A model generated the notes under the pieces. That model saw nothing but the letters and a program-made list of their open reading frames with translations, searched no databases and had not been told where the DNA came from. The position numbers and the translations under genes were made by a program. A stretch of 64,000 nt of DNA from Raillietiella orientalis (taxonomy: Eukaryota): positions 930,001-994,000 of the forward strand of contig JAYWIR010000035.1 in NCBI GenBank assembly GCA_036172245.1, given 5' to 3'. How positions within the stretch are numbered: position 1 is the first letter of the stretch; each line of letters opens with the position of its first letter. Shown piece after piece: positions 1,285 to 60,671 of this stretch.

Positions 1285-1800
1285 CAAGTAAGAACAAGTA
1301 AGAACTGTGTTTCTGTTGCAGTAGCATAGAATTCTTCTTCTGGGTGTGCAGATAGTGAACTTGTCACTTAGACATTTCAGACATGTCTTTAAGATCCCAG
1401 GTTTGCTTTTTCACTCGCATCTCTGCTGAGCAAGATCGTACTCTTTCTTTCTTTCCGCTAAGCAAGATCTTCCCGTTAGATGCAATGCGTTTCAAAGCAA
1501 AGATATCAGTCAGTAATGACTATGCAAGGAAAAGTAGTCCCCTTGTAATGTGCATTTTAAAGATTTTCGTGCATTTTCACGTTCTCTCAATAGGAGGCAA
1601 GTAAAAAGCTGTTTCATTATCATCAGCGTTCTTGTAATCGGCGCGACTTCCGGCGTTTAAAGCAATACGTAAAGCGCCTATCTATCTCCTTTGCTCTTCT
1701 TTGGTTTTTGTTTTTCAGCGCTTTCAGGGAAATCGGAATTTCAGGGAATTGATCAGCGCTTTTCAGGGAAAGCACTGGTCAATTCAATCATTTGCAGTTA

Positions 1801-2498: not shown

Positions 2499-2888
2499 TA
2501 CATCACTTCACGCACTATCACATCACGCTGAGATGCAGGAGAAAAAAAACAAAAAACAATCTGAAAACTCATATATATGCAGAGGAGGGCATGTCAGTGA
2601 ATTATGAAAGAGGCAAAGGATTCGTTCTGGCATTCTTCAGAGTTTGTCGACTACGGGAGATGCTTACCGAGACAAGAGAACTCCTTTGCAGATTTATTAC
2701 TAGTATTAAAGAGCATTTATTCATAGCAACTTCAGCTTTAGTGATAATTTTTAAAGCTGTTCCAGCAAAGCAGTTTCTAATGAAGCACTGCATCCCTGCC
2801 TTGTTGGTAGAATGGTCAGATTTGAAACCCTTTCAGTGTAAATGTGATACGAAAATGTTTCTGTGAAAATGTAATCACCTGATAGCAG

Positions 2889-2920
2889 ATCGCTTCTCGG
2901 CCTTTTGGCTAAGATCAAAG
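2889..2920 (+). pseudogene. U2: U2 snRNA 5' fragment (first 32 nt), 3'-truncated pseudogene
   Basis: ATCGCTTCTCGGCCTTTTGGCTAAGATCAAAG matches the metazoan U2 5' end from nucleotide 1. The sequence diverges (CGTTCAATAG) just before the branch-point recognition sequence TGTAGTA. Confidence 0.9.
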
Positions 2921-3365
2921 CGTTCAATAGAAAAATGTGTGCGTGAGTGCATGGCTGATGCTCCTAAGCGGTGAAGTTTTCGTCTTAGCTACTCTGCGGC
3001 AACAGTGTGCTTCAAGCAAAGCACTTTCTAGAGTTGCCTTATAGCTGTAAATCGTTAAGTACCAGCACCATCTTTCCTTAGAAGTTTTCCATCCTGCCTA
3101 GCTATTCACCAGAATCTTCCGAATGGCTTCCAGTTTCTAGCACGAACTTAAGAAAGAGTGCCGATTTAGGGCATTAGGTTAGTGACCCCGTCTCGACTCA
3201 TGCTGCAGGCTAGCTTCCAGTGCCCTCGGAACACAGCGTTACTGAGAAACTTTGAGCACGTGCAAAGCAGGTAACAACTACAAAACAAAAACCACCACGG
3301 TACATCACTGTACGATCGACAAATGATCCAAACATACACCAAAAGTACCAAAAGTAGTCCAGAAG

Positions 3366-3501
3366 AAACGAAAATCAGGATCGAGGGGAATGGGTTGTGC
3401 AAACTTAATCATCGGATCCTAAAGATATAATTTAAACGAAAATCAGGATCGAGGGGAATGGGTTGTGCAAACTTAATCATCGGATCCTAAAGATATAATT
3501 T
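3366..3501. repeat. Perfect 68-bp tandem duplication (2 copies)
   Basis: AAACGAAAATCAGGATCGAGGGGAATGGGTTGTGCAAACTTAATCATCGGATCCTAAAGATATAATTT occurs at 3366-3433 and again at 3434-3501. Confidence 0.95.
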
Positions 3502-4249
3502 TAAATGTTTTACAGAGTGTCAAGTGTCCTTCAAAAAGATTTAACTCAATCTAGCCACATGATACATGATTTTCTAATTCAGTATACTTAAACTTAACAT
3601 CATTTTTACATCTACAAATTAAATACTATAAATAATTTTCTCTTTGCCATTTTACGTACGTAATTTAATTTATTGACATTTGAGAATCAAATTTTACCAT
3701 TAGTTTCTAAACAATTTTACCATTAGTTTCTGAGTTTACTGTTGATGGTTCAGCAGAAACAACATTCATTTTGAAAAATTGATCCAATCATTCTGACTTA
3801 AGCTTATCACTATGTTTAGTAATGCACCCAAGCTAAAGAGTTTCTTCGATAAAGACGTCATGTTCACCACTGTAATTATCAAAGATAAGCCAACTTCAAG
3901 CCTTGCCACGCTTGGCTCCTTTCTCATGGCTCGCTCTCTGGATCTCCCATTACACTCACCCTCAACTCCTTCTTCCTACCCCTAACCTTCTTTGGATCAC
4001 TAGTCTCAGTACAGTTTTATTCGACTACCAATAACCACCCTAAATATTGCATTCCTTTCTTGTTCATTTACCGAAAAGATTTAAAAGCAAACAAACAAGC
4101 TCTGTGAAAGCTCCATGAAAAAGCTCCCCATAGATATTTTGAATCGTCATTGAATGAATTGTCAGAACATTCTCATTTTTTTCATCGCTGACTTCTTCCG
4201 CATCTCAGAACGCTCCTTTTACATTTCTCATTCAGGTCATGTCCATTTA

Positions 4250-5900
4250 CCTATTATTTATTTGCCTTGCCATTTACCTATTTATATCTTTTCCGATCAT
4301 GGTGAGGTCACTTTTGAGCATTGGGAGTTCCGCAAGGGATATGAAACTTATTTGCACGATGAGGTTCCAAGAAAGCATCACTTCTTGGATGCATAACATC
4401 ACAGAGCTAAATGAGAAGTTTACAGCGGTTTCTCCTCTGTCAAATCTCTTCTCGTTCGTTTTGGCACTACATCTACTAATCCACAGTCTCTGCATCTTCT
4501 TGCAAATCACGAAATAATAAAAACACGCCACAGTTTCACAGATACAAAAAATGCCGTCTAGACGATCACTTCCCTCTGATTGCCAGCACATACCTATTTG
4601 CATTCCTATCCTCAATTGCTATGTGGACTTCAAGGTGTTGCTGCTCAGGGAAATGATTCCCCATGTGGACGTCACGTTTCAGCAGCTCACTGCAACCTTC
4701 ACTGCATTCCTAAATAACAGGAGTGATTTTGCTCCGTTTTAAGATAGGGCATTTCAAACTGGGCTGCACTCAGTTACAACAGACGCAGACAAACTTTGGG
4801 AAGGTTTTGTCAATGTGTCTTAGGGAAAAGCTCTTCGGAAGAAGAGGATAAAATATAAAATTCCTCGAAATTTCAGGAAAAGACGCCAGAATGTATCGAA
4901 GGAACAAGAGCTTCTGGAGATCTCACGAAAAAGCTTCACAGAAACGGACAACCACGACAGGAATTACAAATGAAAATTGGCTAAGGACGAGTACAATGGA
5001 CAGCTTCATCCGTATTGTGTATACCTCTAGGATTGGAAACGGCCCCTTTGAGGAAAGAAAATCCTCCTGCGACACCCCCGCTGAAAATTTCGAGGTCATA
5101 TAATGGTTCTTGACAGAAATACTAGCAGAAACCTCATAAATCCATCAAAGAGCACATGATTCATCAGAGTATAACTAAAGCATATTTAGAAATCCGTTCC
5201 AAAGTACCTGATTAGCATATAATATCGAAAAAAAGCAAACGTAAATTTTCATATGTAGAACATGTGGAAATTTACGATAGCATTAGGTGACACTGGTATG
5301 CAACCAAGGACTTGTCTCTTGGAACTTCTGGTTGGATAAACATGGAACTATTTAGAAAGCAGGAAGGAAAATTCACTGAATCAGAGAATCAGTTCAGTGC
5401 AACTGGGAGTTCTATTTCCAAGAATTTTTTGTTCTCTCGGGAAATTCTTACTTTTAAGCCTTCTTTAATATTTCTTCAAATGAAACAGAAACCTTTGAAT
5501 CTGCATTGTGATTAATTACATGAAGGACATTACTATGATCGAGAAAGCAATGTCAAACATTATGGACGTTAGGCATTTCAATAAGAATATTGAGGAATAG
5601 GACGAAAGATCTACATTTTTAGTGAATGACGAAAAAATTACCTCTATAAGGGTCATTCGAAAGTTGTGTATAAACATTGCAAAAATGGTGAATTCAAAGA
5701 TTATGAATCCAGAGAAGTTTTAAAATATAATCTGTGAAGTCAAAAAGAAATTGAGGATTAAATAGAGTTGAAATTTTGCATTATTATGATGGAGATTATT
5801 AGTTGTGAATGCCTAAGTGCCTTCGAAATCGGAGATTTTCGTGGAATAAGGAAAGGAAATCAGAGTCCATAGTATCATTAAGAAAGTTCCAAAACAAAGA
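4250..5900 (+). mobile_element. Possible decayed APE-type LINE fragments
   Basis: An FSDH motif (APE endonuclease C-terminus-like) near 4290 is followed by RFQESITSW...ELNEKFT and DKLWEGFV segments resembling the post-endonuclease linker. Heavily frameshifted. Confidence 0.22.
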
Positions 5901-7909
5901 AATGTTTTATCATAACATGGACCATACCACTATTATTTTTTATCTCTTCCAATGTGAGTGATGGGCGAGGTGAATTAACTATCTAATCATGATTCGTTCG
6001 ATGGTAGAAACTCTGCGTGTTTTTCAACTGGTAACACTAAGCATTCAGCCAAATAGCTTGACAATCAATCTTAATTTTAAAAAACCTTATCCGAATGTAA
6101 AGATGCAAATTATTTACTTCCCTTCTTTCTTCTCCTCCAAATCTAAAGGACTCAAGAGTAAAGTCAATCATGAGACTTGTGAAATTCTAGGTTTATGGTG
6201 TCCTAGAATTTCCAGGATGTGTTTGAAACTGTTATAGCGATTATAAACGAAGCTGGATATTTGCTTTTCCTTGACTCGAACATTTGGTTTGCGTCACCTG
6301 AGGTATGAGGTAAAATTTGCATTTTTTTTTTTTTTTGTGGAAATCGAGTCAGTGAGAACGCTTGTTTTGGTCTTGTGAATATCAGAAACGATTCCTTCTT
6401 TTTGAATTTTTTAAACAGGAACTGCCTGATTTGACATGAAGGAAAGCATATTAAGGGAAGTGAATGCCTGATTTTTCTAATTACTGAATTTTCCTATACA
6501 AACTAATGATTTGTTGTGTTCAGTAAAGAAAAGGTGATAGTATGAAAATTATTCAATTCTATGATTCCCATTTCGATTTATCGAAGATCAGTACCCATCT
6601 GACAAAATAAACTGGCTATCATGAATTACAAGGAAATGGAGCACTATGAAGTCTAAGACACGGGAAGATTATTTTGATGAGCTGAGAGCTTGTAATTTTG
6701 AAATCATTAACCTTGCAAGCTCATGAACAATCACACCTTTCAGTTCATTCTGGCCAGTTTGAAAAGAAAAGGTACATATGAGAAGGACACTAAGCCGCTA
6801 AATTAGAAATTTATCATTCATCACCATTAACTGCACGGAAACAATCTCAAAAGAAAGAAGAAATTAGACGGAAATGAAAAACCTTCAACGCTGTAGAAAT
6901 TCTCAATTATGGAGGATGCTGTTTTTAAAGCACGATGAATCTTATAAATTCATAACTCATATTTTATCCGTTACTGCAATTCATCTTAGAGCTTTTTCAT
7001 ACTATTATTGGATGTTTTTCACTAAGCAATTTTAACACTCTTATTTGGTTGCACTAATTAGTTGTTATGAAATTTGGTTCAGTTTACCCACTTAAAATAA
7101 AAAAAAAAATAACGAGAGCTCCAGGGATAGCATTGGAGACTTCGCATAGTAATGCTAACCGAAAAGTACACGCCGCTTATAATATATTCAAAATCAAAGC
7201 CAATTATTCTTAAAGAGAAGCAGACACGATGGATATAAAGATTGGTAGATCAAACCATAATATCAGTATCTTTAAACACCAAAAAAAAAAAAAAAGAACT
7301 CAATAGGAGTGGGGAAAAAGTCGAAAAAATAAATGCATGAAAACGCATAGCAACGGAGGCATAAACCTTGTGGTCAGTGATTTACAGTAAGTTCTCCATG
7401 TACGAGGAAATACTCTAAGCATAAATATGTCCGCATTTTCCTTTCAACGAATATCGACAGATCTATTTGCAGAGACAGAAATGAAAATTGAGAATATTCC
7501 TCTTTCCTAAAATAGTTCAAATTTGTTTTACATCAGGAATCACATTAACTGGTCCAAAATATGATCATAAAATAAAACGACGTAATGACAGGGTTTAGTT
7601 CTCATACACTTTTCTTGTATGGATTTTTTAACTGGAAGTTAACACGAAAGCGTGTGCCTCAATTTTCTGTTTGATGTTGAAGCATCCATTTTTAAAAAAA
7701 AAATCACATCACAACAATAAAACACTGAATGATCTATTCATTTCTTCACGAAACTATGGTTTAATGTACCTATTTTTTAAATTCGCCTACTAAAATCTTT
7801 GCCATTCAATTGTTCGAATAGGTAAATTCAAAAAGCACATAGACGTAACTGCAGATTTTCGGAAAGTTGATAACCGTTCTTTATAATTGTGGTAAGCGTA
7901 AAAAACATT

Positions 7910-10900
7910 ATGGCTGCAAGTCGAAGATTGCATAAGGTAGCTCACTTATAATTATTTGTTTTTATCATCATAGATAATTTATGTATTCATCAATGAACAG
8001 ATAAGAATGTAGCATATTATTTTAGGAGCTGCAGGATATAAGAAAAGCAAATCTGAAATCCTTCCGTGACATACAAGTCGACGAAAAAAATTTACTTAGC
8101 TGGCAAGGACTCATTGTTCCAGTAATTCTTTATATATACAATAATTATCTTTAATTATCAAAGAATTCTAGTATTCAGCACTCGATGATTAAAAGTTATA
8201 TTTCAATGTTTAGGATAATCCTCCATACAACAAAGGAGCATTCAGAATTGAAATAACGTTTCCAGCAGAGTATCCTTTCAAACCACCCAAAATCAATTTC
8301 CGAACCAAAATCTATCATCCTAATATTGATGAAAAAGGTCAAGTTTGCCTACCAATTATTACTCCAGAAAACTGGAAGCCAGCAACCAAAACTGATCAAG
8401 GTTTTGTTTTCTTACAATATTGCCCAAATTGTAGGCTATCAAAAGTTTTAGACAGAACTGATTTGATTGTTTGTAATTTAACCTTACTTCTATTTCGAAG
8501 GGTCTAACTCCAAATTCTTGTGTGGTTTCAATATGATTTATGTAAAAGTTTTAAAGATAGTGTAACATAAAATAACTTTATACATATAAGTAAGGGATTT
8601 AAACAATTAAATTCCAGATTCCATCAAACATCTTCTCGGTCATTTCAAAGTGAAAAATTAAATAAAAGCAGGAGAAAAATTCGGATAAAATTGTTTTGAG
8701 GAAACCAGAAATGTTAAATACTTTTGATTCATGTCATACATCATAAAAATGTATGTTTTTTCTCTCTCAGCATTATGTTGAATCGTATAAAGAAACCAAG
8801 TAAAAATTGGCAGATAGGTTTCTCATGTAAGAGTGTAGTTTTGTTGTTCTGTTGGTTGCCATGTGTATTTGCTGAATATTTTGAAATATGCAATTTGACT
8901 ACCAAATATCGTGTATCCATATATTCCTCAGATGTGTACTGGGTCATCATTTGTGGGTTTGGTTATTATAGTATTGTACAACATGTTTTTTAAAGAATTG
9001 AAGAAAGATGTGATTTTTGGAAATCCATATCATGATCCATAATTGATGTCTTATATACTTTCAATTACAATATTATTTGGAAAGTTTGAATAATGTGATG
9101 TTTTGAAAATTACCGTATGTAACTTTTTATTACTTGAACTACAAATTCTCTAAGTATTTCAGCAAAATTTGTGCTTTGTGGATGTTATACAATTTTTTTG
9201 ATATTGTAACATCCTTGGTATTCCAGTATTAATTTTTTTGTCTTTTTAAACTATGCTTTCTGTAAGGAAGTATCGACCATGAGAAAAATTGCTTTAAAGT
9301 TTTTGATGCATTGGAAAGTTCTAAATAAGGAATGGAATATGTTGAAAAATGCATGTTAATTAAATTAATATTTGAGTTGTTCAGCTTTTTTTAATTGTAA
9401 GTTGTTTGCCTTATGTTAGCTGATGTTTATTCATATTATTGCTCAACAAAAGAAATTTGATAAGGGAAGCGGAGATCAAAGGCATAGTTTTGTTTTAAGT
9501 ATATCTAATAATAAATAAGTTTAGCAAGAATTTGGGTTGGAAGACTAAATTAGGAGATATTTCTTTTACAGGTCAATTATTTAGTCATTTATTACTTGAT
9601 TCTTGTTAATGAATTCAAAAATTTAATGATTACCTATGTTCAGCAGGATCATAGGCTGTTGCCTTGTTTGCAAGGTTGTTATGGCTGTTGAATGCATTCA
9701 GGAAATAATAAAAAGTAATTTTTTGAGCTTCTAAAGAGTAATTGAAGCTTGAAATTACTTAATGTATTCAGTGTATTCAGAAGTTCATGTATGATTTTTT
9801 ATGTATCCTATTGGATGTAATATCAGGCTTTAGGTTTTTGAGGTTGTAGAAACTTGATGCCCATCATTGTTTTTGTGCAGTATTAAATTTTTGTTTCTTA
9901 AATCATTTCTGTTTTCTCCATGTGTATGCAGCACTTATTGAAATGATTTGTTCTTCCAGTAATTTATCTTCAGAAGCCCAACAGTTTTTGGTTCATGTAA
10001 TTTTATGTAGCACTTATTCACAATTATGACTACAAAGTTCTGTTTATGCATTCAAAAAGTGGATGCATTTCATCACAGCTCTTTTAACTACTTGAATTGG
10101 CACAAATTTAGAATGAATATTGAGATGTTAAATACTCCTCTACAAAATCATGGCAGTTTTATCACTGAAACTGCTGCAGATACTTCTGTAATCATTAAAC
10201 ACAAGTTTCATTCATGTTTAGACAATACACATGTAAAGAGAGTTAAATGACCTGTAGCATACATGAGATGTATTGCATGAGTTTTATGAAGACATTGCCT
10301 TATTTGCTATCACTTGATATGCATTGTTAAGTGGACATTACATATTGGGGTAATCAAAAGTTGCCATTATTTATAAATTTGCAAACTTAATATTTTTATT
10401 AATAGTCCTCTGTGTTTCCTAGCACATACTTACCAAAAACGTCATCCAGCATTTTTCTAGAATTTTAGCTGGAATTAATTAATTTTTTTTTTTTTTTAGC
10501 ATAGTTTTTCGTACCTTAATTTATCAGGATGTAAATTTCCATGCATAATACATGGGAGCTATTTATCAAAACAAAATATGAACTGTAAAAGAATTTATTT
10601 CATCATCGAATTTGATGAACAATTGACAGGAACCAATATGAGTAGATAAAATCATCGATATGTTTCATTTTTTACTTAATTACTGTTTTGTTACTGTTTT
10701 GTTTTAACTTGTGTACAATCTCGTTATTGCTTTGGGAATTTCTAAAGATTAGACGAATTTCTCGTTTGAAAGCTGTCTTTTTTCTTTGAATTGAACACTT
10801 GTTAAAGCAATAACGTTAAGCACACATTGTTTATCTAAAAGATGCCAATTAATTGTTTAGTTAGTTTAATAGAAAAAAAAATCTTAATCAGGGTTAGAGC

Positions 10901-13060
10901 ATGGATTCATAGAAAATGTGAAAGTATTGATGTAATTCTATTTTTCTTATGTAATAGTGAATCAAAATACTTAACATTTGTATTACATTTCAGTTTTTGT
11001 CAAACATCGACTTAACATAGTCAACATTATTTAATGGAAAATTTTTGTTAACAAGAAATTGTGACATAACTCAGTTACAAAGTTTTTGTTTGAAATGTCA
11101 TCTGTAGTTGGCATTTGTTGCTTTTTTTTTTTTTTTTATACTAGTCTTTTATTGCACTGAATTATTCCACCTTATATAACCTAGAACGAGGTTGCCTTCT
11201 CGAATTTGGAATGTGGACGTTTTTTTGACGTTTTTTTTTTTTTAAAAAAAAAAAAGAGAGAAGAGAGGGGGAAAAAAGAGAGGCTTATTTGCTTTTCCAT
11301 TTGCTATTTGCTTTCGAAAAGAACAATGAATGCTCTTGGAAGTCCACTTTCAAAAAAGTAATATTACACAAAGAGGATGTTGAGTTTCATCAAACATATT
11401 GTAATTTCACAATGTTTGCATGAAATCAAAAAATATTTGGCTTGCCACAGTATGCATTGAGCAAATATTTTAAGAAAAGAATCCTTCGATTTCAGAATGA
11501 ATGAACAGGAAATTATGAAATTTCCCCCATGTAAAATGTTGATAGTACTATTCTCAATGAAAACAATCATAATTTGTGGTAGAAACAGTATGTTAACTGA
11601 TATGTTGATTGATTATCTGCTCATCTACTTATTTTTAATTTTGAAGCAGGAACTTTATGCATTTCATTCTTATGCAGCATCTGAGAAATTGTTACCATTT
11701 AATGATTTTGCTTACATTTTCTAATCATTAGTGTACCAGTGCATTCTGATATGAAATGAGGTCTAGCTTTTGGAAAATTTCAGGCACTAAGAGTAGAATT
11801 TATTTTTGAGCAACATAGCTAACTTCCAAAAATTGCTTCATATTGTTATTGGTAGCTTACTATCATTACTATCACATTTTTGTTTTCATCTGCATAGAAT
11901 ATTTAACAAAGATTTTTTGGGGTTCCATGAAATTTAATGCCTATGTTTTTCTGCAGATGTAAAGCTGCTAAATGTTACAGTGTGCTCAGTCAAATACACC
12001 AAGCCATTGAGTATGCTCTCTCAGTGCACTCAGTTTAAGATACAAGCTGGTGTGTAAGTTTGATTAGGATTTGCAAAAAAAAAACTGACAGAAGCATGTG
12101 TAATATAGTAATGGCGATAAAATTTAAATTTTTACCTAGTTTTTGTGTCTTTAATTTACTATGTGTTAAGTACAGTTGAGATTTTTCTGTGGTATGTCAG
12201 GCATTATGATATGCAACAATATAGATGTTTTCTTTCACATCCTTAGTAATATGTATTTGATTCCATGATTTTGATCTGTGTGTTGAAGCAAACTGCATTC
12301 TCATAAATGCAATCATGATCAGAAAATGTAATGATATGCTATGTTCCAGCTTAATTATTTTAATAAATAAATGTATTATAGAAGTCATAGTTAACTTTCG
12401 TATTTATTTCTATATTGAGCTATCAAGTGATTCATTTGGCTATTATTTGAGAAACTTTCATTCAGGATTTTGAAAGCATGCGAGCTAAAATTAGAGTTCA
12501 TAAAGTCAACTTTTGCTTCCTAATTATTAAGATGGAATTTATGGTTATCAGCTTTGTTAGAAATTGAGAAATCTTAGTTTTTTTATAATAATGAGCTTTT
12601 TATCTGCATTAACATAGTAAGCTTCTTAACATTGAGTAAATATGCTATAAGACTGATCCATGTCGATCATGTTTAATCGGTGCAGATTTTGTAATTCTTT
12701 TAAAATTCAGTAGCGTTCAGTAGCATTTTTCCCACTGTACCGTATTATATGCATAAATAAATTAGTGTAATGATTTCTAAACAAAACGAGCCGTAAAGCA
12801 TTTTATTTCAAGGTAAACCATTTCACAATTTTATATAAACCTAAAAGTTTTTAGTCTTATGATTTCATTAGTCATAGTATTCACACTGCTTATTTCTCTT
12901 TTTAGTTATTCAAGCATTAGTGGCATTAGTGAATGATCCTGAACCTGAGCATCCTTTAAGAGCAGATCTTGCTGAAGATTACAGTAAAGACCGGAAAAAA
13001 TTCTTGAAAAATGCTGAGGAGTTTACTAAGAAAAATAGTGAAAAAAGACCTCCAGATTAA
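7910..13060 (+). CDS. UBE2L3: Ubiquitin-conjugating enzyme E2 L3 (UbcH7/UbcD10-like), 154 aa, 4 exons
   Basis: Exons 7910-7936, 8026-8121, 8214-8400, 12906-13060, all GT-AG and in frame. Protein: [16 protein letters not shown]...[56 protein letters not shown]...[35 protein letters not shown]...EKRPPD*. HPN motif and catalytic Cys are present. Confidence 0.97.
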
Positions 13061-13138
13061 AAAAAAAAGGAAAGAAAGAAAAGAAAAAAAAAAAGAAAAT
13101 ACACAATCAGATTCTTAACAATTATTCATGTTGCTATA

Positions 13139-13149
13139 AATAAAATAAA
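13139..13149 (+). terminator. Overlapping AATAAA polyadenylation signals of UBE2L3
   Basis: AATAAA at 13139-13144 and 13144-13149, about 80 nt after the stop codon. Confidence 0.6.
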
Positions 13150-13418
13150 TTTTGAGGTTTAGTTCTCCAATGTTAAAAAAGCATATTTCTAACTTTAGTT
13201 GCAATTAATACATCAGACAGTTTTTGTATATGGATGCATTTGTTAATGGGAACATCATGTGGTAGTTGAAAACTGATTGTAGAATATATTGATTGATTTA
13301 TAATTATAAGATGTTGTTTTTTTTTCTTAGGAGATTTTATTTAGATATATTCAGAAATACATTAAAAAGACGATGTATATGCTTTTAATTTTAAAATCAT
13401 GACAAATTAAAATTTACA

Positions 13419-16400
13419 ATGCCTACAATAAATCATAAGGGAAAACTTTGGGCTGTTAAAGTAACAACTATGGATGCTGAATTAATATTCAATATTGAGG
13501 TTTGTAAACATGAAATATTTAGCATTTATCTTCAATATTTAAAATATGAATTACAACATTTTGAATTTTTCAATTGAGTATTTATGTTTATTAGTGGCAC
13601 ACTCCTGGGAAAGATTTATTTGATTTGGTTTGTCGAACAATTGGGTTGAGGGAAACTTGGTATTTTGGCCTTCAGTTTGAAAATACAAAAGGAAATATGG
13701 CCTGGTTAAATCTAAAGAAAAAAGGTTTGCAAATCCATAGTAATTTCGCATTAGTACAACATTACAATTTCAGTCAAAGATCAACATGTAAAGTTGGAAT
13801 CTCCTGTGTGTTTTGTTTTCCTCGCCACATTTTACCCAGAAAATATAGCAGAAGAATTAATTCAAGAAATAACTCGACATTTATTTTTTTTGCAAGTTAA
13901 GCAAGCTATTTTAAATATGGATATATACTGCCCTCCTGAGTCATCTGTTCTTTTGGCCTCATATGCTGTGCAAGCTAAGGTATTTATTATGTACTACTAA
14001 TTGATAATTCGAAGTGTTTAATAATATTTCCACTTCCTTATGTATAGGAATGATCCCCACAAATAACTATTTATTTTTGCTTGACCTGAAGTTCTTTGAA
14101 TAAAATTAAGTTAATTTTCGTATTTTACTTATTTTGTAGTGATCCTTTGCAAGTTCACTAACCAGTTGTGTTGTATTTTTTTTACTGTAGTACGGAGACT
14201 TTGATGAACAAATGTACAAGCAAGGGCAGTTTTCAATAGAGGAATTGTTGCCTCAGCGAGTTTTGGATCAGTACCAGATGACAGCAACAATGTGGGAGGA
14301 GAGAATTAAGGTTTGGTACTCAGATCACAGAGGAATGACCAGGGATGAAGCTGAATTGGAATACTTGAAAATTGTTCAGGATTTGGATATGTATGGAATA
14401 AATTATTTCCCTATCAGGGTAAGAATTCATGAGCATTATTTATTAATTTTTTAGGTTCTCTTTACTTTTTTACTGTTTATCAGTTCCTAAGTTTGGTTGA
14501 TTTGAAATGCATTCTAATTTTAATAATCACCATGAATTTTAACTTATGGTGATCATTGAATACCTCATGTCATTGATTACATAAAAGTACTGTCTTCCTT
14601 GATTGTACTTTACATTTATAATAAATGATAATGCAGAAAATATTTTGAGCCTAGCTGCATTGTTAACGTAATGAGGTTTTGTACTAGTTTTTAAAGGCAA
14701 ACTTAATATTTATCTAATATGATTAAAAGTGTGACATTCTTTGTAAAGTTGTTGCTTTCAAGCATAAGATTTTAAATTGGAAGACACATGAAGGTATTGT
14801 ATGCCAAGTGTCTTACTCTTAGTAGCTGACATATGTTCCTAACAAAAGCAACCAATACATTTTGGAATGAATTCAAATTTCATATATTGAGCCTGTTAAG
14901 GATGTTTGAGCCATTAACTTATTCATTAAAAACCTTTCTATGTATTTAGCTATCAAGATAAGAAGTAAATTGTGTAATTATTCTTATTTGTTGTCATTTC
15001 CTAATGTTGGAAATTAGCATTTTGTATTCACTCGCGATTTCTGATTTAATTTTTTGTCGTCTTATGCTCTGGCTGCTGAAAGGCTGAACACAAAAAATAA
15101 TGCATCAACTAAGAGTAGTTTTAACAACCAATTTCCTCCGAATCTCTCACAAGAATTGACATGGTGTTTTCTTATTTTATCAGAAATAATAGTAAGCCAC
15201 TTGGTAAGGGATATGGAATTTTCTGAGGACACAGAATTTCAGAATACCATAGAATCAGCACTCTAGAACGTACTCTTTTTATGCATTTTGTTGATTGGTT
15301 GTGTATGGTAGTGAACAGTTCTATGTGAAGATACATAATAAAAAACATAAATACAAATGAAACAACATAATGTGAGCAAAAAATGCCAGGAAATATTGTG
15401 GTGAAATTTTAGAAAGTAACTTTCCATTCACAAACTCGATTTGAATATAATCAAGTACCATTCGTAACTATTTTTTAGTTCATATTAATTGGGAAAGTGA
15501 TTGGTTGCATGTTTCTAATCTGTTTGGGGATTTCTTTTAAATTTTCTCGTATTAATGTCTAATCTAGTGATCAATGCAATGGTTGAAATACAGATATGTG
15601 AACTGAGGATTTAAATTGAATGAACTCGTGGTGTTTCAGTCTTCAAATCTGCATCATTGCTCAGACCGTTTTAGTGTAATCTGAAATAGAAAGTTTGCAT
15701 TGTTTGCGTATTTATATTATTTGTTTACATTATGTTGCTTCTTATAGAATTTGAATTTTGTTTAGTTGTTCATTAATTAGTTATGTAAATGTAAATGAAA
15801 ATTTTATAAAGGTATTTTTGGGTAGTTGCAATTATTTGGACTTCAATTGGCATTAAAATTTCCATTGAATGCTACATTTAGCATAAATGGTAACAGGGTA
15901 TGTTATGTGAAAGTATTATCAGTATTTTCCTATTTCCAAATTTCAATTCTCTATATCCTTATTTCTAAATTCCCCACATTAAGTATAACAAAATCATGAG
16001 CTTCATGATATCAATTGTGTTTTATACCATTGATGGCTCAAAATATTCAATGTATTAAAGTGTGCCCTTAACGATTTTTAATTAAGCCTTAGCATTATTA
16101 ATTGTTTTAAGTGTTTCATTTTCATATTTGTTTCCTCACAATTCTCATACAATGTCTCTTTTTGTTCTTTCATCTAATGTATTTTAAGGGTAAAGTTGTT
16201 TTTTCCACTGTATAATTGACATTTCTAGTATTGCTCTTTGCATTTCATTTACAATATAATGTATTCTTGATTGGTTTATGCTCCCATTTATGAATCAAAT
16301 GTCCTTATCTTAGTATTACCATCAATTTGTTTTCAATGAGATGATGATGTGTAAGCTCGAGTTCATCATGTGCATCATGTGTTTATGAGAGTACATATAT

Positions 16401-19400
16401 TTGGTATATTAAGTTTCAAGTGATTCTTTTAATTTCATTCCTTGTGAAGCGTCTGCACATTTTACTTTTGATATCTACTACTTTCCTGAAATTCTTGAAT
16501 TGAGCACTGTGAGTCTTTGGTCTGTGATGTTTAGTTATAATTTCAAAAATGCAGACAAGATGAATGTTATAACATGTTGATGTGTTCTTAGTTCTTAGTG
16601 TAATAAATAATATTAGACCAAAGATTTCATTCGGGACCTAGAATTTGAGGTCATTTACATGATTTGTATGTGAAAATTGGTTGCCATTTCCATTGAATAC
16701 AGAGAATGTCCTTATTGAGCTAATATGATTAGCGATCATTTCGATTTCTGATTAAATTGGTCCCGTAAATAGTGTATGTGATTAATACAATTGGATTGGC
16801 ATGTAACTATTGAATTTATTCATATTTAATTATGATTTTAGCGAAATATTCGAAAATAATTAAGCTCTGCTTTCTTGTTTTACTTTTCCGGGCCTTACAC
16901 ATGAATCTCTTGGGTTGTTTCATTTTGTTTTTTTGCTTGCGAAATCCCTTTTTGTTTTTGTAGTTATCAAAATTGTAATTTTAAACATTTCTGAATGAGG
17001 TGCAAGATTAAGTGCAGACTATTTATGCATTCAGCTCATTCATTTCATAGACTGCTCATTGATTTTTCTCATTGCAGTTTTACAATACAATAGCATAATC
17101 CAAAATAGAAGAGCATAGAATTAGCTTGACTATGAAAGCTAATGGACTATTGCATCAAATGCAAGGAACTTTTTTTCATTTCGTTTTTCACTTCCAAATT
17201 TGATTGTCTCATAAGACATTCATGCATAATCAATCTCAGGATTCATTTAATTTTTTAATTTCTTTTTTTTTTTATAGTGCATCTTGCTTGCATTTTGTTA
17301 CTTGCATTGCATGACTTGTTTCACCTTATGTGCTTTCATTGTATCCATGTTAATTACAATCTTGTGGCACCTAAGTAGAAGTTTCACCTCAGCAACCATA
17401 TTGCTATTGTAGCTTTAGTGAAAATTTGATGCAGTTTCCGATTATAGTTTTGTTTAACCCTGATGCAAATGCAGTTATATTCCTCAAAGGAGGAATTTTT
17501 TCAAGTTTACAGTGCAGTACACAGGTTGCAAATTTCTTGTAATGCAAAGGTCGTAAGAACATATTGGTAATAATGTAGTAAAGCAGATTTCTTATCAGAT
17601 ATTTCACAATAGATATTTTGGGTCTATTTAGTTTCTATTCTGAGTTGTTTTTCTTCGGCTAATGAGTTTACTACATTTGATAATCCATAGAACTAATGCA
17701 TATTTTATTGAGAGAAATTCCACCGGAATTAAGTATCTCATTTCCAAAACATTGAAATTCCGAATGGCTTCTTCCTTTTTTATTCCTTTATAAATAGATA
17801 ATGAAAGATTGCTATTATTACACACTATTGGGAATTAGAAAAATGAGTGCAAAAATTTGAGTTAGTAAACAACGCAGTTTTAATAAGGATCAAAATAATT
17901 AGTCTGTCAGCAAAGTTCATTACTCTAAAGTTCTACTGATTGAAATTCAAGCCTTTTTATTGTAACAGGTTATCAGTTTCAGTAATGGTGTATAATGCAT
18001 GTAGATATGAAATAAAATTTAGAAAAAATATTAATGATTTTAGATTCATCCTATTTTTAGAACAAAAAGGAAAGTGAAATTTGGTTAGGTGTTTGTGCCT
18101 TGGGCTTGAATATTTATGAAAAACCTAACAAGCTGGAACCAAAAGTTACATTTCAATGGCAAGAAATAAAGAACATTAGCTTCAGCAATAAAAAATTCAA
18201 AATCAAAATGGTTGAGAAGAAGAACCCTAGTTTCACCTTTTACTCCAGCAAGGCTAATATGAATCAGCTGGTGTGTAGCCAACCTGCTCAAGATGGATTC
18301 CAAGGGCAGCAATTGGCAGATTCTGGACCTGTGCATTGGCAACCATGACCTGTACATGAGACGAAGAAAACCGGATTTCATTGAAGTGCAACAAATGAAG
18401 GCTCAATCAAAAGAAGAAAATCTGAGGTAAGTTTTCAGAAGTAGCTGATGGAGAGACGCCAGTCTATAGGCGTCAAGCAGAACGTAATAAATTGATAAGG
18501 GAGAAACAGCTTCGAGAAGAACTAGAGCATCAGAAGATGCAATTGGAACAACAGTTATTACAATATCAGACTGAAACACAACTAGCTAAAGAAGCATTGG
18601 TAAGTTTTTTTTGAAGGAAGATCAGCATTTGTAAAAAAATGTTTCTAAGCAAAAGTGTGAGGAAACCGTGGAATTATTGGCAGAAAAGTCTCGAGCTGCT
18701 GAAGAAGAGGCTATGTTATTATCAAAGAAGGCTACCGAAGCAGAAAAAGAGATCCAAAAAATTCGTATTGCAGCGATAAAGGTTAGAACAGTTTGAATAG
18801 TATAGGGTGTGAATTTAATTTAGACAGAAGAAGAAAAGTGGATTCTAGAGAAGAAAACACGGGAAGCTGAACTAGCTGCTGAAAAGCAACGAGTTGAAAA
18901 TCAAATTTTGCAGATGGAATTAGCCAGAGCTCGTATTCTAGAGATGCAAATGAAAGAAAAGTTGGATGAAGTTTTACAAACTCCTTTAAATTCTCCTTTG
19001 GTAAAGAGGTTATAGAAAATCGCTCTGAATTCCACAATACAAACAGATCATGGGATCAGCCTTGAGTGCTAATGAGCATTCCATGCTTAATTCTTGTAAC
19101 CTCATAGACTCAGTGAATCCCAATCTTACTACTCAGTGTTTGGCGAATGACCAGAATTTGCTTGCTTACTCTACCAACAAATCCCATTTCCAACAACAAT
19201 TATGTAATTTAAAATCGGAAATGGACATGTTACAAATCAGTGATAAACAGAATATTCTGGATCAACTTCATGAGGAGCAGCAAGCCAGAGGGGAAAATAA
19301 ATACTCTACACTGAAAAGAGTAAGATATGGAAAAAAGCTAGGTTTTTGATTTCTTGTTCTAGATCAGATCTGGTACCACGAGATCAAGGGTGTCATATTT

Positions 19401-19413
19401 TGAAGAACTGTAA
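13419..19413 (+). CDS. NF2: Merlin / neurofibromin-2 (FERM domain, alpha-helical domain and C-terminal tail), ~574 aa, 11 exons
   Basis: Exons 13419-13499, 13595-13724, 13774-13979, 14191-14418, 18061-18270, 18320-18426, 18470-18599, 18650-18781, 18824-19000, 19047-19319, 19363-19413. Motifs: [77 protein letters not shown]. The C-terminus [10 protein letters not shown] is Merlin-type rather than ERM-type. Confidence 0.95.
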
Positions 19414-19438
19414 TCTCTTGTTCATTGATACTCATTTG

Positions 19439-19444
19439 AATAAA
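19439..19444 (+). terminator. AATAAA polyadenylation signal of Merlin
   Basis: AATAAA 25 nt after the stop codon, followed by GT-rich sequence (TTGTGTGTTGG). Confidence 0.6.
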
Positions 19445-19626
19445 TAGAGGAGACTGATGAACCTTGTGTGTTGGGAGGTTACGTCCCCATACCCTAGTTT
19501 ATAGGGACACACTTGGTTCTAGGAATATTGTATTTAACGTTTGACCTATTTATTTTATTATATAGGCGTCATCAAAGTAGCCTCGCAGTAGTGTCTTGAT
19601 GTGAAATCGAATTCTTCATCATCATC

Positions 19627-21044
19627 ATGACACGAGAAGAAGATGAATTGGATGATGCTCTTCCAGAGGAAGATGCTGCGAAGGGTTTTTATGCCAAATA
19701 TGAACCCAAAGAAATTCTTGGCAGGTTGGTATTTTTCAGATCAAATGTTGTGTTGTAGTTTCTGCTTTCTTCAGAGGAGTGAGCTCCACTGTACGTCGCT
19801 GCATTGAAAAAGAGACTGGACAGGAATTTGCAGCAAAGATTATAGACATTTCAGGTGCTGATGGACAGGATCTGAAAGTGTCCACTCATCGTGAAATCAG
19901 TATTTTACGTATGGTAGCCGGACATCCCTACGTTGTTGAGTTACACGATGTATTTGAGTCTGCCACATACATTTTTTTGGTTTTTGAACTATGCCGCAAT
20001 GGCGAGCTTTTTGATTATTTAACTTCAGTGGTGGCTTTATCCGAAAAAAAAACTAAGTATATCATGAAACAATTGCTGGAAGCTCTGCAGCATGTACATC
20101 AGCAGAACATTGTACATCGGGATGTAAAACCCGAGAATATTCTGTTAGATGACAGTTTTAATGTGAAACTGACTGATTTCGGTTTTGCTCGTCACCTACA
20201 AACAGGGGAGATGCTTTTTGGTGGGTAATTCGCAAAATTACCCAAATTAACATTTTGATTGCAGAGCTTTGTGGAACACCAGGTTATCTGGCTCCAGAGT
20301 TACTCAAATGCAACATGTATGACACTAGTGATGGTTATGGCATGGCAGTTGACATGTAAGTTTAGAGTTTTGAAAGCATCATGGATTCATAAATTCATTT
20401 TAAAGTATGGGGACTGAGTTGAAGATTTACTGTATTGTAGGTGGGCTTGTGGCGTCATTATGTACACCTTATTAGTTGGCTGCCCACCCTTTTGGCATCG
20501 CAAACAAATGGTGATGTTGAGAAATATCATGGAAGGACGCTTCAGTTTTGTCACTCCAGAATGGAGTAGTGTGACTCATTTACCCAAAGATCTTATAACC
20601 AGATTATTGACTGTAGACCCACAGAAGCGGTACACAGTAGAGCAAGCACTAAAGCATCCTTTCTTCCAAGGAATGGTATACAGCATCACACTTCCGCATG
20701 TTTTTCACCTCGTTTGTAGCCAACAACATTCAGAAAACTCAATGCTGTCAGGCTGTTTAAGTTTGCTATCACGTGCATTCGAGCAATGATTCGGATTCAG
20801 CGATTAAAATATACTCCTGAGCCTTTATCTGTCATTAAGTTGAGACTCGACCCCTATAGCTTACGTGCAATTCGCAAAGTAAGGATTTATTTTGTAGACA
20901 CACAAAATTAATTGATTACAGGTCACAGATGCAATAGCGTTTCGTGTATACGGCCACTGGGTGAAGAAAGCCGATGATCAGAACCGTGGAGCACTATTTG
21001 AAAACAGTCCCCGCTGCGAATACCAAACCTCCATTCACCTCTAA
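19627..21044 (+). CDS. PHKG: Phosphorylase kinase catalytic gamma subunit, ~383 aa, 6 exons
   Basis: Exons 19627-19724, 19775-20220, 20265-20355, 20441-20675, 20720-20878, 20922-21044. Motifs: [63 protein letters not shown], and the calmodulin-binding tail [10 protein letters not shown]...[11 protein letters not shown]...QNRGALFEN. Confidence 0.96.
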
Positions 21045-21527
21045 GTGATTGTGTAACGTATCAGATAGCAATTGACTTTCGAGGAAAATAGAGAATTGCA
21101 ATTTTAGACACTTTTAACTTTTTGCATACTAATAATATTGTTGTGTTATATAGGGATATATATAGAGAGATATATATAAAAAAAAATCATGTTTGAAAAT
21201 ATGTCTGAAGTTTTACTCCGAACTTTTAGCAGCTCCTCGTGTTACCGTTCATGATCGATAGTGGAAGTTTTTTTTTTTTTTTTTTTTTTTTTTTCCCTTC
21301 CGCGAAGCACATGTGATTGCAGGGTACCTCCTACCTTTCATTTCGTAATAAATGATTGGCTGGGACCCGTATGATGCTCGTTTGTTGAAATGGCAGTGTG
21401 TACGTCAAAGTCCTTTCGTATATCCGATTTTCTTAATTTGAGAGCGTAGAGGCTTTTCCCAGTTTGCGTTGATACGGAAAGTACGAAAGCCGAGACTTGT
21501 ATTTGCGAGATGTGTGAAATGTCATCG

Positions 21528-21682
21528 CACGTGATATTGCAATGTATCACAGATTTGTTGCCAGAAGTTCCAATCGCATCCAGTTCGAATCGTTCTGTTT
21601 TCGTTTTTGTCACAACCAATGCTAATCTACGGATGCTGAGCCAGAAGTAAAGTGGCATGAAAAATCGATGTTAAAGCACGTG
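21528..21682. promoter_or_regulatory. Two canonical CACGTG E-boxes upstream of the Mnt ATG
   Basis: CACGTG at 21528-21533 and 21677-21682, plus CACATGTG at 21308-21315. Function is inferred only. Confidence 0.4.
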
Positions 21683-21915
21683 ATTATTATCAAAAGTGTA
21701 CAACTCATGTCATGTTAAGCCCCACCTTCGCAGAACTGTTCCCTATTATGTATGGAATGAAATCCTAGATCAGTTTAAGCCCATGATGTGATTCATTCTC
21801 TTGACTGGACTGTTGTTGCTTTTCCAAAATTTGTGAATCTTGCATCGAATCTTCAAAGCATAAAGAAAAAGGTTGCTATAAATGCTCCTGCAATTTCCAT
21901 TCTGCTCAATCGAAA

Positions 21916-24900
21916 ATGAATATAGAAACTCTTCTGGAAGCTGCTAAATATGTTGAGTTTCAATCACAGCAGTGTACTGAAAAGTGTAAGCTGTTATGCA
22001 CTATATTTTGATTTGTTCACTTATTATTATTATTATTTTTGTTCATTTTTGTGGTAATGTGAATGCCTCATGTAAAAAACATTTGAGTTGCAGAATTTTT
22101 ACTGTACGGATGGTGAATGTTGAATCCTACTGTGTGTTTTTTTTATCATTTTTAGTACGGAATCATGAAATGGATTCAGATCATGCAGACATATTAAACG
22201 AATTATTCAAGCCGTTTGTGAATATTTCTGGAACAGTGAATTTCGAAAACTCATCCCCGCTTAACGTTGTATCTGCTTTTTCTTGCCCATCCCAATCAAT
22301 GCTGACAATAAGTCAGCCAGCGTCCGTCTTACCTACTTATGTACCGAAGTTGGATGAATTGGTCCAAGATAATCGGAAAAGATCAAAGTATTGACTTGTT
22401 TGCATGTTCAGTTTATCAGTCAGTATGAGTTAATAAAATCCTAGTAAAAAAATAATCCAGTTGAGCTTCTTTAGTTTCCGATTTTATGTATTTTAATTAT
22501 AACTGTCTTGTGATGTTTTTTGTTTTGTTTTGTTTTTTCTTTAAGCACAGTAAAAATTCTTGTTTTTTTTAAAAAAAAAAAATAAAAAAAATTATATTAA
22601 CGGCTCCACTGCTTTTACTTAAGAACTGTAAACAAAGAATTCACTGCACAGTTGACTAATGCTGAAGCACTGCATATATTTGCAGCTCAGGTACACGGGA
22701 AGTGCATAATAAGCTGGAGAAATTCCGACGCGCTCATTTAAAGGAATGCTTTGAATTTCTTAAAAAACAACTCCCTAATTTGGATGATCGTAAAGCTTCC
22801 AATCTTAGTGTTTTGCGTTCTTCACTTCGCTGTATTCAGGTGAGTGTTTTCTAGGTTACCATAAGTTTTGTTCTCTTGAAAGCATTTTTGGATCGGAAAC
22901 GTTTAATGCGGGAAATCATTAATAATTAATCGTGTAAGCATTGGAATGTGTTCCATGTGTATGGAGTATCTAACACTTTCGAGTCGATAAAGAGTGGCCG
23001 CTCAGATCTGTGCAGCATGCTTTCTACCTGAAAGGAAACACGTTTTATTGATGACGTCAGAATAGGCGAAACCCAACCTGTATGGGGCGGTGGTGTGCTG
23101 CTTGTCTGCCGTGTGGCTCTTTGCCTGGTGGTGCATCCACGCCAGTCTTCTCAAACGTCTGGTTGCTGCTGCACTTCCTTTTCTTTTTTTCTATCATAAA
23201 AAAAAAAGAAAAGTTTAAATAATCGCGTGGTGAACAAAATAAACCTATTTGTGTCTCTCACTGTGGTACAGAGAAATGTTCAAGAAGCCACATATAACTA
23301 AGCGACTAAGACTTCAGCATACTGTAAATGTTTTCTTGGCTGCATTGAATTCTTTTGGAAGTTTCATGTGGCCGCCAAAGACGCCACGTGCCCCATTCAT
23401 ATTGCTTTCAAATCTTCGATTATTTACGGTTTGAGATTGTAGGTGAAATTCACATCGATCACAACTGCTTCAGGAAAATCATTTTCCTACGGTGGATTTG
23501 GGGATGTCGAACATTCCGTTACGCCCAGCTTGCTTGTTTGTTTTTTCAAGTACAGTTTTTGAAATGGATTCAAATAAAAAGTTATTCTAAAACTTGTCAT
23601 GTGCACAAGCATATTCAGGAGTGTATGTGTAAAAAGATCTTTGGATACTAATCTTGAATCCCATCTGAGATAGAACTTATTCGTATTAAATGTACATGCT
23701 CTGAAAGGAAATTAGGTTTTTCGTAAGTGAGTTTTTTGTTGCTGCTGCTGCTGTTGAGTTGCTCGGACAGGTAATTGTGGCAATCGATAGAAACAAATTC
23801 AAATGACCTGTAACTCTTCTATATGCAATACCATGAATGTACAACAGCTTCTTTTCGATTGAATGGCCCTGAAATCAAGTTTGTGTCTACTACGGGATGT
23901 ATTTGTTTTTGGAATGCTCTCGAGATGTAAGGTTGATCCGCCAAAAGGCTCCTTAAGGCTTATCTTGATTCCTTTCTTATTGCGGAAAAGTGCACATGTA
24001 CGGATGCACGCTCTTCCGAAAATTCATCTGCGGAAAAAAAATATTTTCTTTCCCCTCAAGTTTTATAAGGGAGAAGGAAAAACGCAAATGTTCCCTTATG
24101 GATTATGCCCCGAGCGATTCCCTCGGACCCTAAATAGTGCAAATCATACATTGCTGCTCTACGAGTTCACATGTGAATATTTAATGACGTGGAGTTTGAG
24201 TGTCCATAAATCTTTGAGAACACATCTGGATTATATGCATGCATGCCAGATTTCATACGGTACGCAAGATTTCATAACTTTTTCCGCACTCGAAAGGGAG
24301 TATAATGTGAGGAATGCGTACATGCCCACTGTCTTGATCTCGCATTACCGTACACGGTGAGGAGCTATACAGATGATACTTCACAAGCAGATAAAGCAGA
24401 ATTCTTCCACGAAACTGATGCCTTTTCTGTGTGAGAGATTGGTGACGAGCTTTCATTGTACTTGTAATAATGCTTATCCTAGTTGTGTACCTGTGTACAC
24501 TTCTTCATTGCGTTACTCTACTCTTATCCATCGCGGGTGGTCATGGGAGCCGTGCCATTCATGTTGGTCTAAAAACACACACACACGGCTTTGTACGTTA
24601 CATTATGTAACAGGCAAGCACGATAATTGTGCAGGAAAAAAAAAAGCACTTTCTCATAATTTCCGTAATAAATTCTAAAATCAATTCACAAAGAAAGTGT
24701 TTATTGTGTTTCGTATATAAGTAAACTCTCTCGTTTCATCTCGAAATGTTTCGTAGTTGGTTTTTTGTTTTGTTTTTTCCTGACTTTGCCTGATGGTGAT
24801 GATGTTTCTTATGGTTTAAGGTCGTTGTAGTTTGTGCATGTTTTTCTCTGTGGCGATGGCATGTCTCACAAGCAAGACACCGACAGAAAGTAGATTGCTT

Positions 24901-36600: not shown

Positions 36601-36680
36601 ATATCCGCTCTTAGAGTCACTTCGTCCTGGGATGATGAACTGAATATAAGGTCTGCTTCTCGGTTGCCATTCTGAAAATG

Positions 36681-57950: not shown

Positions 57951-60671
<2,721 letters not shown>

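Follow-up and report, generated by a model that had tools for sequence, protein, structure and literature searches.

The window, by which we mean the whole 64,000-nucleotide stretch of DNA that was analysed, contains a tight gene cluster that had been described correctly but is ordinary. Four unrelated conserved genes are arranged head to tail on one strand and encode a UBE2L3-type E2, Merlin, phosphorylase kinase gamma (PhK-gamma) and a Mnt/Mad-like bHLH protein. The best reading, which we regard as probable, is that four separate RNA polymerase II genes are packed closely together in a compact, AT-rich region of a pancrustacean genome; the sequence signals that had suggested a spliced-leader (SL) operon are mostly what chance would produce. 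Each upstream gene terminates with its own AATAAA and a G/T-rich stretch downstream of it, and transcription of each downstream gene would most likely begin at a small promoter within the 165–550 nt left before its ATG. For this arrangement we infer both the transcription start sites and that no leader is added.

Gene models and identities

The four genes are supported by clean GT-AG gene models, as follows.

7910–13060, + strand: UBE2L3-type E2, 154 residues, with exons 7910–7936, 8026–8121, 8214–8400 and 12906–13060 and GT-AG introns
13419–19413, + strand: Merlin (NF2), gene model of 11 exons, 574 residues
19627–21044, + strand: phosphorylase kinase gamma, gene model of 6 exons, 383 residues
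21916–22839, + strand: Mnt/Mad-like bHLH, first three exons (21916–21985, 22156–22387 and 22686–22839); the gene runs on downstream

The names UBE2L3, Merlin and PhK-gamma, proposed in an earlier note on this DNA, are upheld by Pfam matches, by scores against PDB sequences and by matches to named PhK-gamma proteins. The first gene matches Pfam UQ_con, and one 62-residue exon compared with the PDB scores best against UBE2L3 (124.6 bits), followed by UBE2L6 (97.8 bits) and other E2s (at most 71 bits). The second gene contains FERM_M and FERM_C; one of its exons (76 residues) has Merlin as its best PDB match at 109.3 bits, with a small margin over ezrin at 99.2 bits. The third gene matches Pkinase and is 70–78% identical to named arthropod PhK-gamma. 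Three arthropod PhK-gamma orthologues (tblastn) align with it from residues 1–3 through about residue 380, so that no upstream coding exon is missing. The name Mnt was retained in part: assignment to the Max-network bHLH proteins stands (Pfam HLH; best PDB matches to Max, about 29 bits), whereas the finer name goes only as far as Mnt/Mad-like. The first exon of this gene has no Pfam match and may resemble the N-terminal Sin3-interaction motif expected of Mnt.

The arthropod origin that had been suggested agrees with the best named matches for two exons, which are nearly all from arthropods, and with a quick tree in which the kinase falls inside Pancrustacea (SH-aLRT 96). In the same tree the kinase lies beside barnacles and one amphipod (SH-aLRT 84) on a long branch, which is a weak placement. 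No close annotated relative was found in the named-sequence comparisons or in the tree.

Intergenic gaps and poly(A) signals

The gene models place the stop codons at 13058–13060, 19411–19413 and 21042–21044 and the ATGs at 7910, 13419, 19627 and 21916, which leaves gaps of 358, 213 and 871 nt. The gap lengths in the earlier note are thereby reproduced, and its description of four closely spaced genes on the same strand is borne out.

13061–13418, + strand: gap 1, UBE2L3–Merlin, 358 nt, GC 22%
19414–19626, + strand: gap 2, Merlin–PhK-gamma, 213 nt
21045–21915, + strand: gap 3, 871 nt, CpG-normal, with AATAAA at 21347
13139–13165, + strand: UBE2L3 poly(A) signal AATAAA and T/G-rich stretch, read directly in the sequence
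19439–19478, + strand: Merlin poly(A) signal AATAAA and GT-rich downstream stretch, read directly in the sequence

The AATAAA signals lie 79, 26 and 303 nt past the stops of the three upstream open reading frames, each with a G/T-rich stretch behind it, and the site at 21347 is the sole AWTAAA in gap 3. The hexamers at 13139 and 19439, which had been described as followed by ∼120–185 nt and then an acceptor, are 185 nt (gap 1) and 121 nt (gap 2) from the respective acceptor-like motifs. This spacing, comparable in size to the intercistronic distances of nematodes, and the 358 and 213 nt gaps between same-strand genes favour an SL operon. In such an operon the UBE2L3 promoter would drive a single precursor covering UBE2L3, Merlin and perhaps PhK-gamma; the upstream cistrons would be cleaved at their AATAAA, and the downstream ones would receive a trans-spliced leader at 13331 and at either 19566 or 19523. 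On balance with the evidence given below, we consider this very unlikely. An Rfam scan of the window returned no families at gathering score. Among 44 metagenome loci with PhK-gamma relatives, no match to Merlin, UBE2L3 or Mnt was present nearby; about ten of these loci have at least 3 kb upstream and none is a close relative, and the missing conserved neighbourhood counts weakly against an operon.

Candidate splice acceptors

13315–13330, + strand: acceptor-like motif 1 (T9, CTT, AG), 88 nt upstream of the Merlin ATG
13373–13401, + strand: three upstream ATGs (13373, 13379 and 13399) inside the would-be 88 nt Merlin leader
19549–19565, + strand: acceptor-like motif 2, ending in TATATAG, PWM score 4.8

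Both motifs for which acceptor function had been proposed, TGTTTTTTTTTCTTAG ending at 13330 and TTTATTTTATTATATAG ending at 19565, are present at these positions. For the second, 1412 of 2000 dinucleotide shuffles hold a site that scores at least as high, so that an acceptor at 19565 is at chance level, which speaks against an SL operon. Decoys as strong as 19565 occur at 4–7 per kb; of the non-exonic AGs, 85 of 627 (+ strand) and 65 of 737 (− strand) reach its score, and a further site in gap 2, 19522, outscores it (PWM 7.3 versus 4.8). Because motif 2 ends in TATATAG, a near-TATA element 62–68 nt before the ATG is an equally good reading of it. With four separate genes, it would be a chance product of T-rich DNA or such an element. 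The leader after an acceptor at 19565 would be 61 nt long, and the leaders after both 13330 and 19565 would contain upstream ATGs.

The motif in gap 1 has a strong pyrimidine tract, and its PWM score of 7.9 lies in the top of the range of 20 true acceptors, which is in favour of an SL operon. Two other sites in the gap score 7.8 (13198) and 8.7 (13282), and 381 of 2000 dinucleotide shuffles equal 13330 by PWM. A run of at least ten pyrimidines directly before AG was present in 30 of 2000 shuffles. Over both strands (128 kb), 22 copies of this Y10+AG motif are present, and its empirical rate of 0.17–0.28 per kb corresponds to a chance expectation of ∼5–7% for the 277 nt stretch; runs of at least nine T or A are common (39 in 64 kb). 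Taken as a putative acceptor beyond chance, 13330 is moderately unusual, with an expectation of 5–19% depending on the measure. A leader beginning at 13331 would include the three upstream ATGs, a point against an SL operon, and since none occurs after 13401 a Merlin start close to the ATG is favoured.

The same three ATGs would stay in the Merlin leader if 13330 were used in cis. In this alternative the Merlin mRNA would start further upstream, whether within gap 1, within the large intron or 3′ region of UBE2L3 or, by read-through, at the UBE2L3 promoter, and would be spliced to 13330 without a leader; 13330 would then be the true acceptor of a 5′-UTR intron or of a conjoined transcript. The motif does resemble a real acceptor, and a more distant start would agree with gap 1 having no CpG island. 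Of the 20 introns in the gene models, 11 measure 42–50 nt, the most frequent class, so that an intron would fit inside gap 1. The weak cis donors mentioned in the earlier note, GTAGTT at 13262 and GTTACG at 19478, are both present. True donors in this genome can be loose, as in UBE2L3 intron 1 (AAG/GTAGCT), and weak-looking donors in or before gap 1 (13157 and GTAGTT at 13262) are therefore not to be dismissed. The donor at 13262 nevertheless scores below 2.0 on the donor PWM, and the only gap-1 donors that score at least 2.0, 13130 and 13157 (3.9), lie no further downstream than the UBE2L3 poly(A) site. Overall, we regard cis-splicing to 13330 as unlikely. In a run of four separate genes, the preferred reading, the motif before Merlin would also be due to chance or would be the 3′ end of a short 5′-UTR intron.

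CpG content and promoter signals

7000–8000, unstranded: CpG-normal stretch around the UBE2L3 start, 25 CpG versus 24.9 expected, o/e 1.0
8001–19400, unstranded: continuous CpG-depleted block over the UBE2L3 body, gap 1 and Merlin, 96 CpG versus 258 expected, o/e 0.37
21877–21883, + strand: TATAAAT, 39 nt before the Mnt-like ATG; the nearest upstream ATG lies inside this box

CpG o/e, which serves only as a proxy for promoters, is about 1.0 in both flanks of the depleted block (7000–8000 and gap 3). The region 7000–8000 is likely to be the promoter region of UBE2L3. It had been called CpG-rich: the contrast with the downstream block holds, whereas an o/e of 1.0 is CpG-normal. GpC is normal or raised within 8001–19400, and we infer that the CpG depletion of this block is a mark of germline DNA methylation. 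Gap 1 is inside the block and, in accord with the earlier note, holds a single CpG, at 13371 (4.1 expected; Poisson P = 0.085), and no CpG-normal, promoter-like island. Should promoters in this animal be marked by unmethylated CpG, Merlin would be without one. That one depleted block spans UBE2L3, gap 1 and Merlin, and that the gap holds no island, favours an SL operon; were that operon real, the block would be the footprint of one transcription unit. Gap 2, however, retains five CpGs (o/e 0.69), in keeping with the 'several' previously reported, and four of them fall less than 90 nt upstream of the ATG. Gap 3 contains 32 CpGs (o/e 1.09).

The two ends of the cluster also bear on an SL operon. 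In UBE2L3, the first gene, the 310 nt ahead of the ATG contain no pyrimidine-rich acceptor (best site 7854, score 4.8), which argues against the operon, and there is no ATG in the 146 nt before its start codon. The Mnt-like gene, with its own CpG-normal 871 nt gap and TATAAAT, looks to be independently transcribed, which is a further argument against it; gap 3 is likely to hold the PhK 3′ UTR and the Mnt promoter. TATAWAW, the TATA-box consensus, has a background frequency of 0.69 per kb in the 7–23 kb region, and no canonical copy occurs in gap 2 or in ATG-proximal gap 1.

Comparison with known systems

The cluster resembles the SL2-type operons of nematodes (Caenorhabditis elegans and relatives) in having unrelated same-strand genes, each with its own AAUAAA, a gap of ∼100–500 nt, a candidate acceptor and an ATG. 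It differs in that a leader, an SL RNA gene and a polycistronic RNA are all hypothetical here, in its second acceptor, which is at chance level, in the would-be 88 and 61 nt leaders with upstream ATGs and in its arthropod host. With tunicate operons (Ciona and Oikopleura) it shares same-strand clusters of unrelated genes and a compact genome; there, however, almost no intercistronic region exists, compared with 213–358 nt here. In Wenzel et al. (2021), the intercistronic medians are 99–111 bp in Caenorhabditis and 517 bp in Trichuris, but 1 bp in Ciona and 31–33 bp in Oikopleura, with tunicate cut-offs of 60–84 bp (PMC7986045) that the present gaps exceed. The earlier statement that a poly(A) site ∼100 nt before an acceptor is a signature of nematode and tunicate operons is consistent with these values for nematodes and not for tunicates, to which, given gaps of 213–358 nt, the spacing argument is inapplicable.

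Within Pancrustacea, SL trans-splicing is documented for calanoid copepods and probably also siphonostomatoid ones (PMC4664967), as well as for the amphipod Parhyale (PMC3282834). The pancrustacean host, weakly placed beside barnacles and an amphipod, belongs to this wider group, in which some mRNAs carry a leader, and to that extent an SL operon is favoured. In copepods and amphipods, however, trans-splicing has been described on single genes and not on operons, and according to the background given by Wenzel et al. (2021) no operon has been reported from either group, these being the crustaceans that they name with SL trans-splicing (PMC7986045). Among the titles and abstracts listed in a literature search from 2016 onwards, none reports a copepod operon with trans-splicing. 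The best 120 named PhK matches, moreover, include no copepod or known SL user except one amphipod (74%), and membership of an SL-using lineage is therefore only putative. If an SL operon were nevertheless real, it would place operons in arthropods, a group for which we found none reported, and would be one more independent case that ties trans-splicing to the evolution of operons. The value of the cluster is that it offers a precise target, namely two junctions (13331 and 19566) and two gaps.

Small animal genomes also contain ordinary gene pairs that run head to tail, each gene with a compact promoter. These pairs differ from the cluster in that gap 1 lies inside a CpG-depleted block and that the promoters of gaps 1 and 2 are putative. 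They resemble it in their own poly(A) signals and in their short gaps and introns, and the TATA element near the Mnt ATG is in keeping with such an arrangement.

Organization of the gene cluster

Four genes lie head to tail on the + strand. The gene models were built by hand from open frames and GT–AG borders and were checked by translation:

7910–13060, + strand, UBE2L3-type E2 gene (four exons, 154 residues)
13419–19413, + strand, Merlin gene (11 exons, 574 residues)
19627–21044, + strand, phosphorylase kinase gamma (PhK-gamma) gene (six exons, 383 residues)
start at 21916, + strand, bHLH gene (first three exons modelled)

The models reproduce the stop-to-ATG gaps of 358, 213 and 871 nt (gaps 1, 2 and 3, respectively) described in an earlier note, in which the cluster had been read as a possible spliced-leader (SL) operon in an arthropod. 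We hold with moderate confidence that the cluster is most simply explained as four close-packed separate genes, each of which would carry its own poly(A) signal and would probably be started by its own small promoter. GT–AG borders are found in all 20 introns, 11 of which are 42–50 nt long. The 42–50 nt introns of Merlin and PhK-gamma (13500–21000) coexist with introns of 3.6 and 4.5 kb, and several of the short ones lack a pyrimidine tract.

The exon translations matched the Pfam families UQ_con, FERM_M, FERM_C, Pkinase and HLH, with two of the ten translations giving no match. In comparisons with solved structures, the E2 exon matched UBE2L3 best (124.6 bits, with 97.8 for UBE2L6 and at most 71 for other E2s) and the FERM exon matched Merlin best (109.3 bits; ezrin 99.2), while the named phosphorylase kinase gamma proteins are matches of the kinase exon at 70–78% identity. 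Since three arthropod PhK-gamma orthologues align to the window starting at their residues 1–3, the ATG at 19627 is the conserved start, with no upstream coding exon. The names UBE2L3, Merlin and PhK-gamma are thereby upheld; the fourth gene is, from its predicted protein, a Max-network bHLH gene, for which Mnt is a putative finer name.

CpG distribution and transcription units

The ratio of observed to expected CpG (o/e) is 1.0 at 7000–8000, drops to 0.37 at 8001–19400 (96 observed, 258 expected), where GpC is normal or raised, lies at 0.5–0.75 across PhK-gamma and is back at 1.09 by gap 3. The depleted block has sharp edges, contains two whole genes with their introns and is flanked by values of about 1.0. 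In both UBE2L3 and Merlin, exons are as depleted as introns (0.35–0.44), a pattern suggestive of mosaic germline methylation across the bodies of housekeeping genes. Gap 1, which lies within the block, is indeed free of a CpG island, with one CpG against only 4.1 expected (P = 0.085), and the several CpGs reported for gap 2 number five, four of them within 90 nt upstream of the ATG. This pattern would fit a single UBE2L3–Merlin transcription unit and also a small CpG-poor promoter. Within the 4.5 kb intron of UBE2L3, a patch at 11190–11290 (T13, A12 and a GA-rich run) adjoins a small group of CpGs at 11187–11229 in CpG-poor surroundings and may have arisen by insertion or act as an internal regulatory element.

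An SL operon here, a noteworthy first if it were real, appears quite improbable for UBE2L3 and Merlin, still less likely for PhK-gamma and hardly credible for Mnt. Its best point is that UBE2L3, gap 1 and Merlin share one CpG-depleted block in which gap 1 has no island. Against it, the gap before Mnt is 871 nt long, is CpG-normal and contains TATAAAT at 21877, 39 nt upstream of the ATG, a pattern (TATAWAW) with a frequency of only 0.69 per kb; Mnt is very likely to be its own transcription unit, as judged from these sequence features. Furthermore, an 88 nt Merlin leader beginning at 13331 would hold three ATGs upstream of the start codon (13373, 13379 and 13399); the UBE2L3 start has none within 146 nt upstream. 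UBE2L3, the supposed first cistron, also lacks a pyrimidine-rich acceptor upstream of its ATG. Merlin, UBE2L3 or Mnt neighbours were found at none of 44 metagenome loci of PhK-gamma relatives, which speaks only weakly against the operon because these relatives are distant (best 78%) and mostly have short flanks; many of these loci are short or intron-free and cDNA-like.

Candidate acceptor and donor sites in the gaps

All of the motifs claimed for the first two gaps are present, namely AATAAA at 13139 and 19439, TGTTTTTTTTTCTTAG with its end at 13330 (candidate acceptor 1), TTTATTTTATTATATAG with its end at 19565 (candidate acceptor 2), GTAGTT at 13262 and GTTACG at 19478. The candidates were compared with chance using a position weight matrix derived from the 20 true acceptors, with which all AGs were scored, and using 2000 dinucleotide shuffles of each stretch from AATAAA to the next ATG. 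The true acceptors have leave-one-out scores of −7.4 to 8.9.

Candidate 1 is moderately unusual by this comparison. Its matrix score of 7.9 is equalled or exceeded, among the non-exonic AGs at 7–23 kb, by nine of 627 (+ strand) and ten of 737 (− strand), or 0.6–0.7 per kb, and is reached in 381 of 2000 shuffles; the gap 1 sites at 13198 and 13282 have similar scores. A run of at least ten pyrimidines followed immediately by AG arises in 30 of 2000 gap 1 shuffles. This motif occurs 22 times per 128 kb (the window, both strands), with a density of 0.28 per kb within the AT-rich block, and the chance of meeting it in 277 nt is expected to be about 5–7% at these rates. Because T or A runs of at least nine bases are common (39 in 64 kb), the shuffles understate the chance of the candidate 1 motif. 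Candidate 1 may represent a genuine acceptor of one type or another.

The acceptor claimed for gap 2 is no better than chance. Candidate 2 scores 4.8, a value matched or exceeded by 85 of 627 (+) and 65 of 737 (−) AGs (4–7 per kb) and reached in 1412 of 2000 shuffles, and it is outscored by the site at 19522 in the same gap; it is without information, and its chance-level score counts against the operon. The TATATAG of candidate 2 is one base off TATAWAW, the TATA-box pattern, and may conceivably be a near-TATA element. At about 19507–19515, eight of nine bases match a Drosophila core-promoter element ('Motif 1'), a resemblance to which we give no weight.

The second-ranked reading, in which Merlin transcription starts upstream and the RNA is cis-spliced into 13330, is rather unlikely but ahead of the operon. 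Candidate 1 may be real, and introns of 42–50 nt would fit inside the gap; with introns as small as these, a short 5′-UTR intron could be accommodated in either gap. The gap donors are unconvincing. True donors of the cluster genes are loose (e.g. GTAGCT, GTTTTG, GTGTGT and GTATAC). Of the weak cis donors about which the earlier note had cautioned, GTAGTT at 13262 scores below 2.0 on the donor matrix and GTTACG at 19478 scores 4.4, a strength found at 5.6 sites per kb. No donor stands out in either gap.

Comparison with known spliced-leader systems

SL trans-splicing in some crustaceans, as had been stated, is borne out by Wenzel et al. (2021; PMC7986045), who count copepods and amphipods among the groups that have it and note that no operon had been described in either of these two. 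In the excerpted text of Yang et al. (2015; PMC4664967), the copepod leader is present in calanoids, with no match in cyclopoid or harpacticoid data. Trans-splicing in the amphipod Parhyale is confirmed in excerpts of a transcriptome paper (PMC3282834), and the corresponding text of the genome paper (PMC5111886) uses 'polycistronic' solely for a microRNA cluster. No arthropod operon is reported in the titles and abstracts of the literature searched. A poly(A) site about 100 nt before an acceptor had been presented as a signature of both nematode and tunicate operons. In PMC7986045, the nematode medians for intercistronic distance are 99–111 bp (Caenorhabditis) and 517 bp (Trichuris), and the tunicate medians are 1 bp (Ciona) and 31–33 bp (Oikopleura), by which a spacing of 100 nt resembles that of nematodes and not that of tunicates.

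Host lineage and other features of the window

The arthropod origin of the DNA is supported. The best named matches of the kinase exon are almost all from arthropods (among them Daphnia, ostracods, crickets, barnacles, springtails and a millipede; top 78%). In a quick maximum-likelihood tree built from the full kinase and 44 relatives, the PhK-gamma of the window falls within Pancrustacea (SH-aLRT 96). Its branch there is long (0.55), and its place next to barnacles and an amphipod is weakly supported (84), a position to which long-branch attraction possibly contributes. A PKN-like exon on the opposite strand has chiefly insect matches at about 50–57% identity. No annotated close relative was present in the collections searched.

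Among 148 ORFs of at least 70 residues other than those of the cluster, Pfam matches were confined to a Josephin ORF and three ORFs of PKN-like kinase type; none of the 28 ORFs of this length upstream of UBE2L3 (1–7000) contained a Pfam domain. Rfam at the gathering score and a tRNA scan of the whole window gave no match of either kind, and a search of public RNA runs for 12900–21900 listed no run containing this stretch. Homopolymers are frequent throughout the window: runs of at least nine bases number 16 for T and 23 for A, the longest being T27 at 21268. A GC-rich block at 35000–47000 (GC 0.48–0.55 versus 0.28–0.40 around it) contains coiled-coil-like + strand ORFs and long open antisense frames (e.g. 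487 residues at 39092–40552 on the − strand) with no significant Pfam match; 26 ORFs, mostly from this block, gave two sub-threshold matches only.

The Josephin gene (56720–57274, + strand; single exon, 184 residues) is convergent with a PKN-like AGC kinase gene (about 57950–59400, − strand). Its matches, which come from insects, molluscs and other groups, reach at most 47–55% identity; the top match of the ORF was rejected as a flagged contaminant record with a high score due solely to internal duplication. Protein atlas annotation of the ORF gives 'Josephin' only, and the phylum most often represented there is Chordata or Arthropoda. An acceptor-like pyrimidine-rich site ends at 56702, 17 nt upstream of the Josephin ATG, and a CACGTG palindrome lies immediately 5′ of this ATG.
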